DNA from: a virus
Lineage: Duplodnaviria; Heunggongvirae; Uroviricota; Caudoviricetes
Strand: one strand, 5' to 3'
Virus record (IMG/VR): IMGVR_UViG_3300000292_000107
DNA length: 13,162 bases
Below the pieces are notes generated by a model that did no database searches, had not been told where the DNA came from, and was given only the letters and a program-made list of their open reading frames with translations. Made by a program: the position numbers and the translations under genes. Below are positions 2-9,423 of this stretch, in pieces (within the stretch, counting starts at the first letter, position 1; the number at the start of each line of letters is the position of its first letter).

Positions 2-331
2 AGGGTTTATGACGATCAGCCGTTTGACCGGCAGATTGTTATTCCGGCGGTGGCATTCAGCGGCGCTAAACATGAGCGGGAGAATAACGATATTTATTCG
101 TCATGCCGCCTGATAGTACGGAAAAACGGTGCTGAAATTTATAACCGTACCGCGCTGGATAATACGCTGATTTACAGTGGTGTTATTGATATGCCAGCTG
201 GTCGCGGCCACATGACGCTGGAGTTTTCGGTGTCAGCATGGCTGGTGAATAACTGGTATCCCACAGCAAGTATCAGCGATTTGCTGGTTGTGGTGATGAA
301 GAAAGCCACCGCAGGCATCAGTATCAGCTGA
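2..331 (+). CDS. Host-specificity (J-like) tail-tip protein, C-terminal fragment; 5' end lies outside the window
   Basis: Frame is open from position 2 to the TGA at 329-331 (the track's M at 50 is internal). It sits immediately upstream of lom and stf, which is the lambda order J-lom-stf. Assignment rests on synteny and recalled similarity to the lambda J C-terminus. Confidence 0.6.
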
Positions 332-398: not shown

Positions 399-989
399 AT
401 GCGTAAAGTTTGTGCAGTCATTTTGTCCGCAGCCATCTGTCTGTCCGTATCCGGTGCGCCTGCATGGGCGTCTGAACATCAGTCCACACTGAGCGCGGGG
501 TATCTTCATGCCCGTACGAACGCTCCCGGCAGCGATAATCTGAACGGGATTAACGTGAAATACCGTTATGAGTTTACGGACGCGCTGGGGCTGATTACGT
601 CCTTCAGTTATGCCAATGCTGAGGATGAGCAAAAAACGCACTACAGCGATACCCGCTGGCATGAAGATTCCGTGCGTAACCGCTGGTTCAGCGTGATGGC
701 GGGGCCGTCTGTACGCGTGAATGAATGGTTCAGCGCGTATTCGATGGCGGGTGTGGCTTACAGCCGTGTGTCGACTTTCTCCGGGGATTATCTCCGCGTA
801 ACTGACAACAAGGGGAAAACGCACGATGTGNNNNNNNNNNGTCGCCACAGCAACACGTCTCTGGCGTGGGGGGCTGGCGTGCAGTTTAACCCGACCGAAT
901 CCGTGACCATTGACCTTGCTTATGAAGGTTCCGGTAGTGGCGACTGGCGAACGGATGCATTTATTGTTGGTATCGGATACCGTTTCTGA
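399..989 (+). CDS. lom: Lom/Ail/PagC-family outer-membrane beta-barrel protein (prophage lysogenic-conversion gene)
   Basis: 196-aa ORF with a signal-peptide-like N-terminus (MRKVCAVILSAAICLSVSGAPAWA), the family motif GINVKYRYE and the C-terminal YEGSGSGDWRTD...GIGYRF. SD GAGAGG lies upstream of the ATG. Ten Ns at 831-840 fall inside the ORF without breaking frame. Confidence 0.9.
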   Translation: MRKVCAVILSAAICLSVSGAPAWASEHQSTLSAGYLHARTNAPGSDNLNGINVKYRYEFTDALGLITSFSYANAEDEQKTHYSDTRWHEDSVRNRWFSVMAGPSVRVNEWFSAYSMAGVAYSRVSTFSGDYLRVTDNKGKTHDVXXXXRHSNTSLAWGAGVQFNPTESVTIDLAYEGSGSGDWRTDAFIVGIGYRF

Positions 990-1140: not shown

Positions 1141-3516
1141 ATGACAGTAAAAATTTCTGGCGTGCTTAAAGATGGCACAGGAAAACCAGTACAGAACTGC
1201 ACCATTGTGCTGAAGGCCAGACGAACCAGCAGCACGGTGGTGGTGAACACGGTGGCCTCTGAAAATCCGGATGAAGCCGGACGTTACAGCATGGATGTTG
1301 AGCATGGTCAGTACAGCGTCACCCTGCTGGTTGAAGGTTTTCCGCCTTCACATGCCGGGACCATTACCGTCTATGAAGGTTCCAGACCAGGTACGCTGAA
1401 TGATTTTCTCGGTGCCATGACGGAAGATGATGTCATGCCGGAGGCATTGCGTCGTTTTGAGGCAATGGTGGAAGAAGCGGCACGCAACGCCGAAGCCGCC
1501 TCTCAGAGCGCAGCGGCGGCAAAGAAATCCGAAACTGCAGCGGCATCATCGAAGAACGCAGCGAAAACCTCAGAAACGAATGCAGCTAATAGTGCACAGG
1601 CGGCAGCGACCTCAAAGACTGCATCGGCAAACTACGCGACAGCAGCCAAAAAATCAGAAACCAACGCGAAAAATAGCGAGACAGCCGCAAAGACGAGCGA
1701 AACCAACGCAAAGTCCAGCCAGACGGCAGCGAAGACCAGCGAAACGAATGCTAAAGCCAGTGAAACTGCAGCAAAAAACAGCCAGGTTTCAGCAGCCCAA
1801 AGCGAGAGTGCCGCTGCCGGTTCTGCGACTTCAGCTGCCGGATCAGCAACTGCTGCGGCTAACAGCCAGAAAGCTGCGAAGACGAGTGAAACTAACGCAA
1901 AGTCCAGCCAGACGGCAGCGAAGACCAGCGAAACGAATGCCAAAGCCAGCGAAACTGCGGCGAAAAACAGTCAGGATGCAGCAGCCCAAAGCGAGAGTGC
2001 CGCAGCTGGTTCTGCAAGTGCGGCGGCTTCTTCTGCCACTGCATCAGCCAACAGTCAAAAAGCTGCAAAAACCAGTGAAACCAACGCAAAGGCGAGCGAG
2101 ACTGCGGCGGCTAACTCGGCGAAAGCATCCGCTGCAAGCCAGACAGCAGCTAAAGCAAGTGAGGATGCAGCCAGAGAGTATGCAAGCCAGGCTGCGGAGC
2201 CGTATAAACAAGTATTGCAGCCGCTTCCTGATGTGTGGATACCATTTAACGATTCACTGGATATGATTACGGGGTTTTCGCCGTCATATAAAAAGATTGT
2301 TATTGGTGATGATGAAATAACGATGCCTGGCGATAAGGTTGTAAAGTTTAAACGCGCATCGAAAGCAACCTATATTAATAAATCTGGTGTGCTGACAGAG
2401 GCTGCCATTGACGAGCCACGATTTGAACGTGATGGCCTGCTTATTGAGGGGCAAAGAACAAACTACATGCTCAATTCGGAAAGCCCTGCCAGTTGGGGGC
2501 GATCGTCAAATATGGATGTGCCCGAAACAGGGACGGATAATTTTGGTTTTACCTATGGAAAGTTTGTCTGCAACGATTCTCTGATTGGGCAAACCTCAGC
2601 CATTAATATGGCATCAATTGCTGCAACAAAGTCAGTTGATGTCTCAGGCGATAATAAACACGTGACAACCTCATGTCGTTTTAAAACAGAACTGCAGGTA
2701 AGGTTGCGTATCCGGTTTGATAAATATGACGGTAGCGCAACAACTTTTCTTGGTGATGCGTATATTGATACACAAACGCTTGAAATTAATATGACAGGCG
2801 GTGCTGCCTCAAGGATTACAGCGAGAGTCAGAAAGGACGAAGCTACCGGATGGATTTTTGCAGAGGCAACAATTCAGGCAATTGATGGGGAGTTAAAAAT
2901 AGGTTCTCAGATACAGTATTCTCCTAAGCAGGGCGGGGCAACCGTATCTGGTGACTATATTTATCTGGCCACCCCACAAGTAGAAAATGGGCCTTGTGTA
3001 TCATCTTTTATTATATCAGGAACGACGGCGGCGACCCGCGCAAGCGATATAGTTACAGTTCCCATTAAGAATAATCTTTATAATCTTCCTTTTACGGTTC
3101 TTTGTGAGGTACATAAGAACTGGTATAAAACGCCAAATGCAGCGCCGCGTGTTTTTGATACCGGCGGTCATCAAACCGGAGCGGCTATTATTCTTGGGTT
3201 CGGATCTGCGGCAGATGGGCCAGACGGATTTCCTTATTGCGATATTGGAGGAGCTAACAGACGGGTAAACGAAAACGCATCGCTTGAAAAAATGGTTATG
3301 GGGATGCGTGTAAAATCAGATCAGTCTACGTGCTCAGTAAGTAACGGGCGCATATCCAGCGAAAAAAAGACTACGTGGTCCTATATTCAGAACTCTGCAA
3401 CCATCCGTATTGGAGGCCAGACTACAGCAGGGTCACGTCATTTATTTGGTCATATCAGGAATTTCAGAATATGGCACAAGGCATTGACTGATGCTCAGGT
3501 GGGGGAGTCAATCTAA
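1141..3516 (+). CDS. stf: Side tail fibre protein (Stf-like) with lambda-like N-terminal anchor, Ala/Ser/Thr/Lys-rich repeat shaft and a divergent C-terminal LamG/ConA-like domain
   Basis: 791-aa ORF. The first ~110 aa (MTVKISGVLKDGTGKPVQNCTI...GRYSMDVEHGQYSV...FPPSHAGTITVYE) resemble the lambda Stf N-terminus as I recall it. The middle is built of KTSETNAK-type repeats. The C-terminus ends LFGHIRNFRIWHKALTDAQV, which looks like a laminin-G/ConA-like jelly-roll terminus. Position after lom matches lambda. Confidence 0.85.
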   Translation: MTVKISGVLKDGTGKPVQNCTIVLKARRTSSTVVVNTVASENPDEAGRYSMDVEHGQYSVTLLVEGFPPSHAGTITVYEGSRPGTLNDFLGAMTEDDVMPEALRRFEAMVEEAARNAEAASQSAAAAKKSETAAASSKNAAKTSETNAANSAQAAATSKTASANYATAAKKSETNAKNSETAAKTSETNAKSSQTAAKTSETNAKASETAAKNSQVSAAQSESAAAGSATSAAGSATAAANSQKAAKTSETNAKSSQTAAKTSETNAKASETAAKNSQDAAAQSESAAAGSASAAASSATASANSQKAAKTSETNAKASETAAANSAKASAASQTAAKASEDAAREYASQAAEPYKQVLQPLPDVWIPFNDSLDMITGFSPSYKKIVIGDDEITMPGDKVVKFKRASKATYINKSGVLTEAAIDEPRFERDGLLIEGQRTNYMLNSESPASWGRSSNMDVPETGTDNFGFTYGKFVCNDSLIGQTSAINMASIAATKSVDVSGDNKHVTTSCRFKTELQVRLRIRFDKYDGSATTFLGDAYIDTQTLEINMTGGAASRITARVRKDEATGWIFAEATIQAIDGELKIGSQIQYSPKQGGATVSGDYIYLATPQVENGPCVSSFIISGTTAATRASDIVTVPIKNNLYNLPFTVLCEVHKNWYKTPNAAPRVFDTGGHQTGAAIILGFGSAADGPDGFPYCDIGGANRRVNENASLEKMVMGMRVKSDQSTCSVSNGRISSEKKTTWSYIQNSATIRIGGQTTAGSRHLFGHIRNFRIWHKALTDAQVGESI
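1640..2110 (+). repeat. Nested in-frame tandem repeats inside stf: two full 189-bp units plus partial flanking copies, built from 24-27-bp sub-repeats
   Basis: Unit 1 at about 1691-1879 and unit 2 at about 1880-2068 are near-identical (anchors AAGTCCAGCCAGACGGCAGCGAAGACCAGCGAAACGAATGC at 1711 and 1900; GCAGCCCAAAGCGAGAGTGCCGC at 1792 and 1981). The period of 189 nt is 63 codons. Confidence 0.85.
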
Positions 3517-3797
3517 TGAAAGATTTAACACTCAAATTTGCCGACAGGGCCGACTTTTCGGCCTTTATGGAGAGTGCTGGCTATTATGATGACGAGTCGA
3601 TGCAGGATGATATTCTTATTGACGTGATAGGTAACGTGTACAAAGAAACCGGAGAACTTACTGAAGATGGCGAGCCGGTATGTGTTAAGGAAGACGGATA
3701 TTTTGTAAACGTGCGCATCATTAATGATGTGAAAACACCGTCAATATTCGATGAATACGTGGTTGCTGTTGAGCATCAACTTCGTGGCTGGATGTGA
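3516..3797 (+). CDS. Hypothetical acidic 93-aa protein, translationally coupled to stf
   Basis: Its ATG overlaps the stf stop (TAATG at 3514-3518). The ORF stops 9 nt before the next gene. I recognise no domain. Confidence 0.55.
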   Translation: MKDLTLKFADRADFSAFMESAGYYDDESMQDDILIDVIGNVYKETGELTEDGEPVCVKEDGYFVNVRIINDVKTPSIFDEYVVAVEHQLRGWM

Positions 3798-3806
3798 GGA
3801 AGAATA

Positions 3807-4847
3807 ATGGCTACATCGACAGTAATTCCTGATGACATCAAAACGCTAAAATCCGATGTTAGCAAATTAAAAAACGATCAAGGAAGCTACGTAACAAAAT
3901 CATATGTAGACAGCAAAAATGAAACCGTTAATGACTGGTCTGCTGCATGGTATCAGCAGGTACTGCCAACTAGCGGAGCTATATTTGGGCGAAAACTTCG
4001 CTCAACTCACAGGACGGCAGGTGTTGAGGATGCGTATTGCGAACTATACCTCAAAAAATGGATAGACAGTCCAGGTAACGCAATGGCGCGCCTTAACCTG
4101 AACGATAACGGGACAAACATTTGCTGGGACTTTACCAACCTTTATGGCGGTACGATGATTTTTCCCGGTGACAGCGGATACCTCAAAATGGGTAACTGCC
4201 TTATGTCATACAGCAAGCGTGGAAGTAACGCGCTTATTAAATTTGATTACACCGACACATTACAGATCAAATATGCCAATCATGGGTCAACCATGACATT
4301 AAACACACAGGGAACCGCTTATGCTGGTGTTACTGCTCAATTGTGGGGCAACTCCAGCCGTCCTGTTGTTTATGAAGTCGGTGTTGATGGTGGCGCTTAT
4401 ATGTTCTATGCGCAGAAAAATACCGATAACACCTATATGTTAAGCGTTAATGGTGCATGTCATGCCACCGCATTTAACCAGCATTCCGACCGGGATCTGA
4501 AAGACAACATTCAGGTGATCGATAATGCAACCGACCGCATCCGTAAAATGAACGGCTATACATACACGCTTAAAGAAAACGGTATGCCCTATGCTGGTGT
4601 CATTGCACAGGAAGCTCTGGAAGCAATCCCAGAAGTTGTAGGTTCCGCAATGAAATATCAGGACGGTGCAAGCGGATCGGAAGGTGAAGAAGGTGAACGT
4701 TATTACACAGTAGATTATTCTGGTGTTACTGGCTTGCTTGTTCAGGTAGCCAGAGAGTCAGACGACAGAATAACAGCACTGGAAGAAGAAAACGCAGAAT
4801 TAAGACAAAGATTATCTGCAATTGAGGCGGCGCTTGCGTCTAAATAA
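3807..4847 (+). CDS. Tail fibre/tailspike-like protein with C-terminal peptidase-S74 intramolecular chaperone domain
   Basis: 346-aa ORF with SD GAGGAAG upstream. The C-terminal ~120 aa begin SDRDLKDNI (Ser at codon 227, nt 4485-4487, with Lys five residues later), then NGYTYTLKENGMPYAGVIAQEALEAIPEVV...YYTVDYSGVTGLL and a terminal coiled-coil (ITALEEENAELRQRLSAIEAAL). This matches the autoproteolytic chaperone domain of endosialidase and T5 pb1-type fibres. Confidence 0.75.
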   Translation: MATSTVIPDDIKTLKSDVSKLKNDQGSYVTKSYVDSKNETVNDWSAAWYQQVLPTSGAIFGRKLRSTHRTAGVEDAYCELYLKKWIDSPGNAMARLNLNDNGTNICWDFTNLYGGTMIFPGDSGYLKMGNCLMSYSKRGSNALIKFDYTDTLQIKYANHGSTMTLNTQGTAYAGVTAQLWGNSSRPVVYEVGVDGGAYMFYAQKNTDNTYMLSVNGACHATAFNQHSDRDLKDNIQVIDNATDRIRKMNGYTYTLKENGMPYAGVIAQEALEAIPEVVGSAMKYQDGASGSEGEEGERYYTVDYSGVTGLLVQVARESDDRITALEEENAELRQRLSAIEAALASK

Positions 4848-5294: not shown

Positions 5295-5543
5295 TTAGTG
5301 AACAAACCACTCGTCAGCAGACTCCCAGGTATCTTTCAGAGTTTCCTGAACAAAAGTTTTAGCTGAATCTTTATCGGCGGTGCGCGTAACAGAAAGGCCA
5401 TCGTTGCTGGTGGCTTTTACGATCACCTCTACATCGTCATAACGTTTACTGATGCGTCGGGTTAATTCTTCCTTTAACGCATCCACAGCACCGTTTGGCA
5501 TTTTAGTCATTTTTTCTTTGGCTATGCAGATCTCAATACGCAT
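5295..5543 (-). CDS. dinI: DinI-family protein (SOS-inducible RecA modulator homologue, prophage-encoded)
   Basis: 82-aa [12 protein letters not shown]...[13 protein letters not shown]...LSV...[16 protein letters not shown] shares the conserved blocks of E. coli DinI as I recall it. SD GAGGGA lies 6 nt upstream and two LexA boxes immediately upstream of that. Confidence 0.85.
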
Positions 5544-5604: not shown

Positions 5605-6702
5605 TCAAGAGGTCTTATTTCTGCTCCTTTGGAGCTCTTCAAAACGATTATGTAAAGATTTCGGATACAGTTCGGTATATACCTGCCATAGCACGTTTAA
5701 TGAACGATGCCCTGTAACCTGAGCGACTTCCTCAATACTAAAACCAGCCTCAAATAAGCGACTTGCCCCTTCTCTACGCAAATCATGGTATCGCAGATCT
5801 TTAATACCTAATTTGCTTCTTACCCTCTGAAATCCTGCAGTAACAGAAGTGCTGTTATATGGAAAAATGAATTCCGATTTTTTGGGCTGTCGTTGGACGA
5901 TATCCCAGGCTTCCCCAAGCAAGGCTACTTTCATGTGGTTGCCTTCCTTTTTGCGTGGATCTTTCCTGTCTCTTACGAGTATAGATTTTTGTTCCTGGTC
6001 GAGATCTTCCCATCGTAACCGGCATACTTCTCCGATCCGCATACAGGACCACACAGAAAATTTGAGGATATCAACGAACGGAATTTTTGAGCATTTATGA
6101 GTAGATCGTTGTTGAAGGCCTTCAATGAGCATGTCCAGTTCATCAGATGCTGGTCTACGATTCCGACGGTTTGATTTACCAATCAAACCAAGTTTAAGTA
6201 GATATGGGCGAGCGCTTTTCGCCGGGTTTGATGTGTAATTAATTCCGTATACAGGTTTGGCCGCATCCAGAACACTGCCAAGATAACTAACATCGTGGCT
6301 GACTGTTGCTGGACCTGCACCAGCGTTGTTTCTTAGCCTGCAATGTTCAATTACGTCATTTTCTGTCAGTTCAGATAGTTTGATCGCGGAGATGTCACTA
6401 TCCATAAGCAGTTCCAGCACATATCTTTTAGTACGGCCTGCTTTACCTCCGGCATTTGGGTCATTTAAATATTTGTGTAGTAAGTCACGGACTGTAAGTC
6501 CGTCAACTGGATTTGATGATGGAATGCCATATAGATCTAATTCCATCACTTTCTGTGTTCCCCATGTTTTGGCATGAGCATGTTTAGGGAATGTTTTGCT
6601 TTCCCTGTAAGTGATAACACCTTTTTCTTTGATAATCACATTACAGCGATAGCGTGGTGTGCCATCGGATTTTAGTCGTTTCTCTATGTTATAGTACGCC
6701 AT
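5605..6702 (-). CDS. int: Tyrosine recombinase / phage integrase (dusA-associated integrase type)
   Basis: 365-aa ORF with tyrosine-recombinase catalytic signatures in the C-terminal half (R in CMRIGEVCRLRWEDL; YHDLRREGAS box; GHRSLNVLWQVY with the catalytic Tyr). SD GAGG upstream. It lies divergent to, and 88 bp from, the dusA start. Confidence 0.9.
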   Translation of the reverse strand: MAYYNIEKRLKSDGTPRYRCNVIIKEKGVITYRESKTFPKHAHAKTWGTQKVMELDLYGIPSSNPVDGLTVRDLLHKYLNDPNAGGKAGRTKRYVLELLMDSDISAIKLSELTENDVIEHCRLRNNAGAGPATVSHDVSYLGSVLDAAKPVYGINYTSNPAKSARPYLLKLGLIGKSNRRNRRPASDELDMLIEGLQQRSTHKCSKIPFVDILKFSVWSCMRIGEVCRLRWEDLDQEQKSILVRDRKDPRKKEGNHMKVALLGEAWDIVQRQPKKSEFIFPYNSTSVTAGFQRVRSKLGIKDLRYHDLRREGASRLFEAGFSIEEVAQVTGHRSLNVLWQVYTELYPKSLHNRFEELQRSRNKTS

Positions 6703-6721
6703 TACACGACCTCGTTATTTC

Positions 6722-6757
6722 GGGTTCCCATAAAACGTGGGAACCTGTGCGGGAACC
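6722..6757. promoter_or_regulatory. Inverted plus direct repeat in the int-dusA intergenic region; candidate integrase or regulator binding site
   Basis: GGTTCCCA (6723-6730) and its inverted copy TGGGAACC (6738-6745) flank a 7-nt spacer, and GGGAACC recurs at 6751-6757. It lies 20-55 bp upstream of the int ATG and has no flanking T-run, so it is not a terminator. Confidence 0.4.
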
Positions 6758-6790
6758 TAACGCGAGAAAAATAGCCTGAAATGTTCAAAA

Positions 6791-7828
6791 ATGCACGATA
6801 ATCATGAAACACAAAAAATTAATCAAACCAGCGTGATGCCTGAAAAAACTGGTGTTTACTGGAATTCTCGGTTTAGCATTGCTCCTATGCTTGACTGGAC
6901 GGACAGACATTGCCGTTATTTCTTGCGTCTGCTTTCCCGCAATACGTTGCTGTATACCGAAATGGTGACCACAGGGGCGATTATTCACGGTAAAGGTGAT
7001 TACCTGGCGTACAGTGAAGAAGAACATCCGGTAGCGTTGCAACTCGGGGGTAGCGATCCGGCGGCGCTGGCACAGTGTGCGAAGCTGGCAGAAGCGCGTG
7101 GATACGATGAGATCAACCTGAATGTCGGCTGCCCGTCTGACCGGGTGCAGAACGGCATGTTTGGTGCGTGTCTGATGGGTAATGCGCAGCTGGTTGCCGA
7201 CTGCGTGAAAGCGATGCGCGATGTGGTGTCGATTCCGGTGACGGTGAAAACGCGTATTGGCATCGATGATCAGGACAGCTATGAATTTCTCTGCGATTTC
7301 ATCAACACCGTTTCCGGCAAAGGTGAGTGTGAGATGTTCATCATCCACGCACGTAAAGCCTGGCTTTCTGGGTTAAGTCCGAAAGAAAACCGTGAGATCC
7401 CGCCTCTCGATTATCCGCGTGTGTATCAACTGAAGCGTGACTTTCCGCATCTGACGATGTCGATTAACGGTGGTATCAAGTCGCTGGAAGAAGCTAAAGC
7501 GCATTTGCAACATATGGATGGCGTGATGGTCGGGCGCGAGGCGTATCAGAATCCGGGGATTCTGGCGGCGGTAGACCGAGAGATTTTTGGTTCCTCGGAT
7601 ACCGATGCCGATCCGGTGGCGGTAGTGCGCGCCATGTATCCGTACATTGAGCGTGAACTCAGCCAGGGTACGTATCTCGGCCATATTACCCGGCATATGC
7701 TGGGCTTGTTCCAGGGTATTCCTGGCGCGCGGCAGTGGCGGCGTTATTTAAGTGAAAATGCCCATAAAGCGGGTGCAGACATTAATGTGCTGGAACACGC
7801 GCTCAAACTGGTAGCGGATAAGCGTTAA
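6791..7828 (+). CDS. dusA: tRNA-dihydrouridine synthase A
   Basis: 345-aa ORF with the Dus-family FMN-binding core ([32 protein letters not shown]) as recalled for enterobacterial DusA. No clear SD at 6791; an in-frame ATG at 6836 (MPEKT...) is an alternative start. Confidence 0.9.
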
Positions 7829-8370: not shown

Positions 8371-9423
8371 ATGGAATCAATAGGCTGGAACCCTGCGTCG
8401 CCCGGCTTTCCAGAATCTCATGCGCACGCCGCGCATCCTTCAGCGGATATTTCTGCTGCTCGGCGACATCGACCTTAATCACACCGCTGGCAATCAAAGA
8501 GAACAGTTCATTACTGGCCTCGGTTAATTCCTCCCGCGTGGTGATATAGCCTTGCAGGGAAGGGCGTGTCACATACAACGAGCCTTTCTGATTGAGAATG
8601 CCTAAGTTCACACCGGTAACCGCACCTGATGAGTTGCCAAAACTCACCATTAAGCCGCGGCGTTGCAGGCAATCCAGCGACCGTTCCCAGGTGTCTCTGC
8701 CCACTGAATCGTACACCACGCGCACTTTCTTACCACCGGTGATCTCTTTCAATCGCTCGACCAGATTCTCTTCACGATAGTTAATAACCTGCCACGCGCC
8801 CGCTTTTAGCGCACTCTGCGCTTTTTGCGNNNNNNNNNNNNNNNNNNNNNNNNNNNNNNNNNNNNNNNNNNNNNNNNNNNNNNNNNNNNNNNNNNNNNNN
8901 NNNNNNNNNNNNNGCCGATAAGTTTCGCGCCCAGGGCTTTTGCCCACTGGCAGGCAATCAAGCCAACGCCGCCAGCCGCTGCGTGGAACAGGAACTGTTC
9001 ATCGGGTTTAATTTCATAGGTTTTGCGCAGCAGATAATAAACCGTTAAGCCTTTCAGGAAGGATGCCGCAGCTTGCTCAAAAGAAATTGCCGCAGGCAGA
9101 ATCGCCGCTTTATCTGCATTAATGTTATGCACAGAGCTGTAAGCGCCTAATGCCGATTGTGCATAGACTACGCGATCGCCTGCCTTAATATGCTTTACAC
9201 CACTGCCGACTTTACTCACGATGCCTGCCGCTTCGGTACCTAATCCGCTGGGTAGCGATGGCGGCGGGTAAAGGCCGCTGCGGATATACGTGTCGATAAA
9301 ATTGATGCCGATGGCTTTATTTTCGACCTGGATTTCATTCTCCGCCGGATCGGCAGGAGTGAACTCTACGGCTTGAAGTACTTCCGGGCCACCGTGCTTG
9401 TGAAATTCAATTCGTATTGCCAT
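8369..9423 (-). CDS. qorA: NADPH:quinone oxidoreductase (zeta-crystallin family), interrupted by an 84-N run at 8830-8913
   Basis: The two minus-strand track ORFs (8806..9423 and 8369..8947) are the N- and C-terminal parts of one Qor-like protein (GAGGVG nucleotide-binding motif; C-terminus ...ESRATQGSSLLIP). SD AAGGAG lies upstream of the ATG at 9423. The parts are in different frames across the N run. Confidence 0.8.

Follow-up and report, generated by a model that had tools for sequence, protein, structure and literature searches.

A small acidic protein encoded at the end of a lambdoid side tail fibre gene accompanies a lectin-like fibre head and may be its accessory factor

Background

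The 13,162-nucleotide (nt) stretch of viral DNA recorded as IMGVR_UViG_3300000292_000107 (hereafter the window, which means that stretch at its full length) holds the right arm of a lambdoid prophage. In it, an open reading frame (ORF) of 93 codons begins inside the stop codon of stf, the gene for the side tail fibre, and is closely followed by the gene for a second, distal fibre protein of 346 amino acids (aa). This is a position where a tail fibre assembly chaperone or an adaptor would be expected, and an original prediction had put the encoded protein forward as a novel candidate for one or the other. What does a small acidic protein do at this place, and to which of the two fibres does it belong?

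Results

The small gene is linked to the head of the upstream fibre

We surveyed 218 loci that carry a homologue of the small gene. At 213 of them the stop of an upstream ORF lies between -3 and +1 nt from the small-gene start, the overlap between start and stop being 1 nt or 4 nt in 212 of these 213, and the protein encoded upstream is closed by a strand of the form [RK]N[FL]R[IVL]W[HQ][KR].L[TS], again in 212 of the 213. It is the upstream, head-bearing gene and not the fibre pair that is the constant partner of the small gene: a place between two fibre genes, as originally described, is what the window shows, but the context of the family as a whole is defined by the upstream lectin head.

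The pair is also exchanged as a unit. The gp41 fibre of phage rV5 and the fibre of phage JeffSchatz are 91% identical over aa 1-1049 and diverge beyond, where the tip and S74-type end of rV5 are replaced in JeffSchatz by a lectin head and, immediately after it, a 110-aa homologue of the small protein; no homologue is present within 35 kb in rV5. A hidden Markov model (HMM) of the family, run on six-frame translations, recovered the gene in the window, phage 21, IrisVonRoten and JeffSchatz and gave no match in the fibre regions of lambda (Stf with Tfa), T5 (S74 fibre) and rV5. Together with the rV5/JeffSchatz swap, this distribution indicates for three phage pairs that the small gene fills the slot in which the sister phage has its chaperone, whether supplied in trans (Tfa) or in cis (S74). 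The small gene has an obligate link to the head-bearing gene, to whose stop its start is coupled, and it moves with the head as a cassette.

Three loci show the pair in other surroundings. A prophage of Chromobacterium amazonense (locus L229, 2691-6297) encodes a 679-aa fibre with a Laminin_G_3 domain and, in tandem, a 416-aa head that lacks a shaft; these two head-bearing proteins are accompanied by a single homologue of the small protein, placed after the second, and one copy for two heads is what is expected of a shared helper. In Martelella lutilitoris (L146, 3216-4854) a stand-alone lectin-head protein of 430 aa and an overlapping small-protein homologue lie between xseA and dnaA, with no phage genes within 4.5 kb, an arrangement that recalls the isolated head-spike locus of the gene transfer agent (GTA) RcGTA. 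In a metagenome-assembled genome of Atlantibacter (L145, 4501-4779) the gene after the homologue encodes a 358-aa protein (MDDIVTLRVNGREWGG...) that is not a fibre and may be a Mu/P2-type baseplate or late-control protein; if so, head and small protein would also occur as a pair in a myovirus-like prophage.

The lectin-like head of Stf

Stf consists of an N-terminal tail-attachment domain (PF08400 phage_tail_N, E = 1.2e-67; phrog_1419, tail protein), a coiled-coil shaft of Ala/Ser-rich repeats and, at the C-terminus, a lectin-like head, and its twin in RefSeq is annotated as 'prophage tail fiber N-terminal domain-containing protein'. The first domain of the head (D1) is homologous to Rcc01080, the head-spike fibre of RcGTA (NCBIfam NF048003 GTA_spike_fiber, E = 3e-13 over aa 434-634; phmmer against chain F3 of PDB 6tb9, E = 2.7e-7). 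The second (D2) is LamG/concanavalin-A-like: its Laminin_G_3 match in the window, over the last 53 aa, is sub-threshold at 23.3 bits, and the full 431-aa head aligns end-to-end with a Chromobacterium fibre (BLASTP, E = 7e-38), the last 143 aa of which do pass the Laminin_G_3 cut-off. The same kind of head has been named 'lectin-like D69' (PMC12143355) and 'galectin-like domain' (PMC11990801).

The shaft-encoding part of stf contains, at 1657-2171, a tandem repeat of 189 nt (63 aa) in 2.3-2.6 copies, with sub-repeats of 42 nt and Ala/Ser/Thr-rich 'AAKTSETNAK' units. The long ORFs in alternative frames at 1427-2266 (+) and 1632-1943 (-) are by-products of this repeat.

The small ORF is a genuine gene of a widespread family

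The 93-codon ORF is a genuine gene. Its product matches PHROG 1361 over residues 1-93 of 93 (E = 1.3e-45) and PHROG 18574 (E = 6.8e-10), both labelled 'unknown function', and distant members of the family match the two profiles alike. It bears the complete family signature (M-x-D...L-K-F, D-x-I-G, G-[YW]-[HFY]-V-N-x-R and a terminal P-x-R-x-W) and all residues that are invariant among 64 sequences (D3, G39, G61, N65, R67, R90 and W92).

Homologues were found by tblastn in 181 phage records, from lambdoids (phage 21 included), Dhillonvirus, T1-like Drexlerviridae, T5-like Markadamsvirinae and Seuratvirus/JenP-type phages; in rV5-like myoviruses the match is limited to the first 71 residues, and further relatives reside in the Chromobacterium prophage and the Martelella chromosome. 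The 93-aa allele is carried by 988 of 5426 complete Escherichia coli genomes (18%), in up to 5 copies per genome. In this the original prediction is supported: the gene is conserved, is translationally coupled and belongs to the fibre module. When 1.8 billion cluster representatives were searched with a profile, 95 clusters were obtained, and a profile made from the distant members yielded 1087 proteins (90% clustering). Proteins of 600-2700 aa with PKD or TPR repeats that came up in the HMM search of the 1.8 billion proteins were judged spurious, their scores being the sum of weak matches over multiple stretches. The ratio of nonsynonymous to synonymous substitution rates (pairwise Nei-Gojobori) is 0.34, 0.31 and 0.23 in three allele groups, not near 1, and the small gene is under purifying selection.

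Known families gave no counterpart. The 93-aa protein has no match in Pfam or NCBIfam at E < 0.1, Tfa/Caudo_TAP and PF13884 included, which agrees with the earlier impression that it is neither Tfa nor any named domain; nor did a match to an unrelated known family emerge. Sequence relatives in the PDB were found neither with the single sequence nor with the 64-sequence profile (GAPDH at E = 0.06 and FlgC at E = 0.13 being noise), and the PADLOC defence profiles returned 0 families at E < 0.01. A further idea is that the gene has nothing to do with fibres and encodes a small protein of lysogenic conversion, exclusion or defence that hitch-hikes at the end of the late operon. As virulent phages also carry the family, and do so within their structural operons, a role in lysogeny or as a 'moron' is argued against, and we regard such a fibre-unrelated function as highly improbable.

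The gene itself is not novel but already catalogued: in PHROG, in RefSeq as a 'hypothetical protein', in phage 21 and in several BASEL phages. The homologue of IrisVonRoten, bas32_0023 (L003, 5001-5279; 92 aa), has the RefSeq label 'tail fiber protein'. We found no literature on the family under FIG00639828, phrog_1361 or VOG7707, and the small protein is left uncharacterised in the BASEL, RBPseg, DT57C, LL5/LL12, rV5-proteome and Eligo papers; the rV5 proteome has no bearing on it, because rV5 lacks the gene.

Translational coupling to stf

The stop codon of stf (TAA, 3514-3516) and the start codon of the ORF (ATG, 3516-3518) overlap by 1 nt in the sequence TAATG, so that the start in the stf stop is as originally described, and so is the acidic nature of the product (10.65 kDa, isoelectric point 4.11, 21 acidic and 8 basic residues). 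The ORF ends with a TGA at 3795-3797, and the 346-aa gene begins 9 nt further on.

With respect to stf the ORF is in the -1 frame, as it is at all loci, and ribosomes shifting by -1 as they reach the end of stf would extend Stf at its C-terminus by the small protein; a frameshift was once proposed for the RcGTA pair rcc01079/rcc01080 (PMC5026251). However, an in-frame stop lies only 9 codons before the ATG, which leaves no long alternative reading, there is no slippery heptamer in between, and the ORF has a strong Shine-Dalgarno sequence and an ATG of its own. In addition, 9 nt separate the upstream stop from the small gene in the freshwater phage L227 and in the Chromobacterium prophage. We rejected the frameshift fusion on account of the near stop, the missing slippery site and the strong Shine-Dalgarno sequence, and consider its chances close to nil.

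The downstream fibre is an optional third gene

The 346-aa protein is itself recognisable as a fibre (phrog_4563, tail fiber) and contains a Peptidase_S74 domain (PF13884, E = 4.8e-14 at aa 227-278). Its N-terminal 15 aa, of which only 4 distinct versions occur, form 1 cluster at 70% identity and are followed by a body of 346 or ~234 aa (2 clusters, minimum identity 0.20); the gene is an exchangeable cassette of this kind in the window and at loci L008-L088. A third gene, 9-13 nt after the small gene, is found in the allele group of the window and in T1-like, T5-like and Seuratvirus phages, where the body of its product varies behind a conserved N-terminus (MATSTVIP.DI..LK and variants). The same three-gene layout recurs in a group of ~30% identity (viral contigs of 45-50 kb and prophages of Leclercia, Silvania and Atlantibacter), with a third protein that begins MANR[IK]D...

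Clustering at 70% identity within each of two allele groups delineated a conserved island. The small protein falls into 1 and 1 clusters (minimum identity 0.87 and 0.81), the head body into 7 and 25 and the body of the third protein into 2 and 8; the last strand of Stf (1 and 4 clusters) and the first 10-15 residues of the third protein (1 and 5 clusters) stay conserved. Forming one cluster beside a variable head, the small protein does not track the surface that presumably binds the receptor and must act on constant features.

Such an island would fit a structural joint: the small protein would stay on the fibre as an adaptor, plug onto the constant C-terminal end of the Stf head and provide a socket for the conserved N-terminal peptide of the distal fibre. 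The result would be a fibre in three parts, with the head and the distal part each exchangeable. The order proximal fibre, small protein, distal fibre is kept in the lambdoid, T1-like, T5-like and Seuratvirus phages and in the ~30%-identical group; the island runs from the last strand of Stf through the ORF into the third protein, with hypervariable cassettes on either side; and the N-terminal motif of the third protein switches together with the group of the ORF (MATSTVIP.. versus MANRID..). The distal fibre of IrisVonRoten has moreover been modelled as hanging on the proximal one, the small protein not being considered (PMC11990801); that paper, in which the small protein is not discussed, calls the proximal fibre Gp23 once and Gp22 once.

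A distal fibre is not always present, however. It is missing from the adjacent position in phage 21 and ~50 relatives, ev243, JeffSchatz, the freshwater phage L227, the Chromobacterium prophage and Martelella, and of the 184 loci whose flank is long enough to tell, 29 lack any gene within 30 nt downstream. The C-terminal motif of the small protein is nevertheless kept, fully in phage 21, L227 and the Chromobacterium prophage and partly in JeffSchatz and Martelella. The downstream fibre is an optional third gene, and the small gene is independent of it. The island could also reflect tight linkage between two recombination hot spots, and a natural fusion of the domain to either fibre does not occur among the 95 cluster representatives. 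A structural joint is therefore in our view rather unlikely, if worth keeping in mind. In a more specific form, the small protein would be a constant plug-and-socket piece, seated permanently on the LamG end of the proximal fibre and gripping an interchangeable distal fibre by its N-terminal peptide, and may also serve the stand-alone, GTA-like heads of alphaproteobacteria; we think this improbable, and if it were true it would account for the independent reshuffling of heads and of distal fibres about a single invariant joint in lambdoid, T1-like, T5-like and Seuratvirus phages.

Predicted fold and C-terminal tail

The 93-aa protein was modelled in two AlphaFold2 runs, with multiple sequence alignments of 33 and 64 sequences. 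Both models have the topology beta1-alpha1-alpha2-beta2-beta3-beta4-beta5-alpha3, with mean predicted local distance difference test scores (pLDDT) of 79.8 and 79.2 and with a strand at residues 2-8, helices at 11-20 and 27-32, four strands within 33-68 and a last helix at 76-81. A Foldseek search of the PDB with the two models gave a best E of 0.058 (NusG NGN, uS10 and PII), which we judged to be a generic alpha+beta resemblance, and a search of BFVD retrieved uncharacterised members of the same family only.

Over the last 20 residues the pLDDT drops to 60 and then to 42 in both models, and the last 12 residues are predicted to be disordered in isolation. Conservation across the 64 diverse sequences peaks in this tail, where R90 and W92 are invariant and P88 is kept in at least 90%. 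We regard the tail as a putative partner-binding peptide.

Alternatively, the protein might act as a cap, stable or transient, that masks or tunes the sugar-binding site of the lectin head until the virion is released. The linkage to the head would be accounted for equally by a cap, the protein is small and acidic, and a precedent exists on lectin-headed fibres (PMC10579305). On the other hand, the protein does not vary along with the variable head part that presumably binds the receptor, and no resemblance to the helical cap chaperones was seen, which makes a cap very unlikely.

Organization of the window

The coordinates of the features are collected in Table 1. The minus-strand integrase adjoins dusA (5605-7828), from which we conclude that the element is integrated at dusA; pspG, qorA and other chromosomal genes follow. 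One RefSeq genome has the identical order J, lom, stf, ORF, fibre, dinI, int, dusA, pspG, qorA, and there the 93-aa ORF is WP_000654155.1, a 'hypothetical protein'. The late region closes with a 100-aa membrane protein, which in phage 21 and ev243 is encoded directly 3' of the small ORF. Masked runs of N at 831-840 (inside lom) and 8830-8913 (inside qorA) split the ORF calls at these places.

Table 1. Position of the small gene and its neighbours in the window, with the sub-features discussed in the text
Feature	Coordinates	Strand	Remarks
J (3' end)	50-331		
lom	399-989		
stf, side (lateral) tail fibre, 791 aa	1141-3516	+	
Stf head, aa 361-791 (431 aa)	2221-3513	+	neck motif PLPDVWIPF, domain D1, domain D2
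Stf last 28 aa (GSRHLFGHIRNFRIWHKALTDAQVGESI)	3430-3513	+	terminal LamG strand and tail; sole part of the head that stays conserved beside the ORF
Shine-Dalgarno GGGGGAG of the 93-aa ORF	3501-3507	+	inside the end of stf, 8 nt 5' of the ATG; read from the sequence
93-aa acidic ORF	3516-3797	+	member of PHROG 1361/18574
C-terminal tail of the 93-aa protein, aa 82-93	3759-3794	+	end motif P-x-R-x-W, most conserved in the family
Distal fibre protein with Peptidase_S74, 346 aa	3807-4847	+	behind GAGGAAG
Distal fibre N-terminal 15 aa (MATSTVIPDDIKTLK)	3807-3851	+	conserved; then swappable body
Predicted membrane protein, 100 aa	4875-5177		PHROG 1443, unknown function
dinI	5295-5543	minus	
Integrase	5605-6702	minus	

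Discussion

Comparison with known fibre accessory systems

In its genetic position the small gene resembles the tfa genes of lambda and of Mu/P2 and gene 38 of T4: it lies immediately 3' of a fibre gene and its start is coupled to the fibre stop, just as lambda tfa starts at the stop of stf. Like the Tfa-type proteins, it is specific to one type of fibre end and takes the equivalent slot in sister phages. It differs from Tfa in the lack of sequence similarity, in size (93 aa against ~190 aa) and in that it does not co-vary with the variable tip. By analogy, its mode of action would come closest to that of proteins which assist fibre assembly in trans (lambda Tfa, T4 gp38), while by the sequence and fold tests applied the small protein falls outside the Tfa, gp38 and S74 families. 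With the S74 domains (K1F endosialidase, T5 pb1, rV5 gp41 and the neighbouring 346-aa protein) it has in common a place at the C-terminal end of fibre modules; S74, however, acts in cis and cleaves itself off, whereas the small protein is made as a chain of its own, and its predicted fold is unrelated. The fibre chaperones of the T4 gp57A type are entirely alpha-helical coiled coils; the small protein is likewise small and acidic, but both AlphaFold2 runs predict a five-stranded sheet with three helices.

A second set of systems is that of the jointed or branched fibres of T4 (gp34-gp35-gp36-gp37), DT57C (LtfA/LtfB) and phiEco32 (gp14/gp15), which the module as a whole resembles. The gene order here mirrors the order proximal, joint, distal, and in the distal protein a variable body is preceded by a conserved docking peptide at the N-terminus (compare PMC4728585). 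The T4 protein gp35 is about four times larger than the small protein. Unlike the present case, the two fibres of DT57C and phiEco32 are proposed to bind each other directly, without a small third protein, and the small protein is also present at loci that encode no distal fibre.

Two further systems resemble the present one through the head. In the Alteromonas phage A5 type, unrelated phage families share a module made of a lectin-headed fibre and the cognate small protein encoded behind it, the two being transferred together (PMC10579305), as head and small protein are here; the transient chaperone caps found there have a helical body that resembles intramolecular chaperone domains, and no similarity of these to the small protein was detected. 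The head spike of RcGTA (base Rcc01079 and fibre Rcc01080; PDB 6tb9) is related through D1 of the partner head, but Rcc01079 is a jelly-roll base that is encoded upstream of the fibre and is no relative of the small protein (PMC7296036).

A proposed assembly factor dedicated to the lectin-like head

The linkage to the head, the cassette swap, the equivalence of the slot to that of Tfa and S74 and the independence from the distal fibre lead us to favour, tentatively, the reading that the small protein is a dedicated, trans-acting assembly or accessory factor of the lectin-like head with its Rcc01080-like and LamG-like domains. The protein would be made by termination-reinitiation right after each Stf chain, would bind the head at some feature that stays constant, with its conserved but disordered C-terminal P-x-R-x-W tail as the probable contact, and would aid the correct folding and assembly of the head and fibre end. 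It would in this way take on in trans the role that Tfa has for the Stf of lambda and that S74 has in cis for the fibres of T5 and rV5 and for the neighbouring 346-aa fibre. Physical binding to the head, the part played by the tail and a chaperone activity are inferred, as is the fate of the protein, which may leave the fibre or remain on it.

Several observations weigh against this assignment. The protein shows no similarity in sequence or fold to known fibre chaperones (Pfam, NCBIfam, PDB and Foldseek), and virion proteomics, mutant or binding data on the family were not found in the literature. The C-domain of Tfa and gp38 co-vary with the fibre tip, while the small protein forms one cluster (at least 81% identity) beside the 7-25 clusters of the head body; this constancy points to action on a constant feature, which would suit a structural joint equally well. 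Finally, the conserved island does not end with the small gene but extends into the first 10-15 residues of the downstream fibre.

Conclusions

The likely role of the small protein would be that of a new, unrelated variant among the known types of phage accessory proteins. Lateral fibres with a lectin-like head are common, and relatives of the small protein occur in model and BASEL phages that serve in studies of host range and in the engineering of delivery particles. The published models of such fibres (RBPseg, and IrisVonRoten Gp22/Gp24 in PMC11990801) omit the small protein. If it is needed for the folding of the head or for holding the distal fibre, then fibre swaps and AlphaFold-Multimer models that leave it out would be incomplete, and the constant island formed by the end of Stf, the small protein and the N-terminus of the distal fibre would be a natural splice point for engineering. 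An assembly function of the small protein would, if true, represent a third and unrelated solution to the assembly of fibre ends, beside the Tfa-type proteins and the S74 domains.

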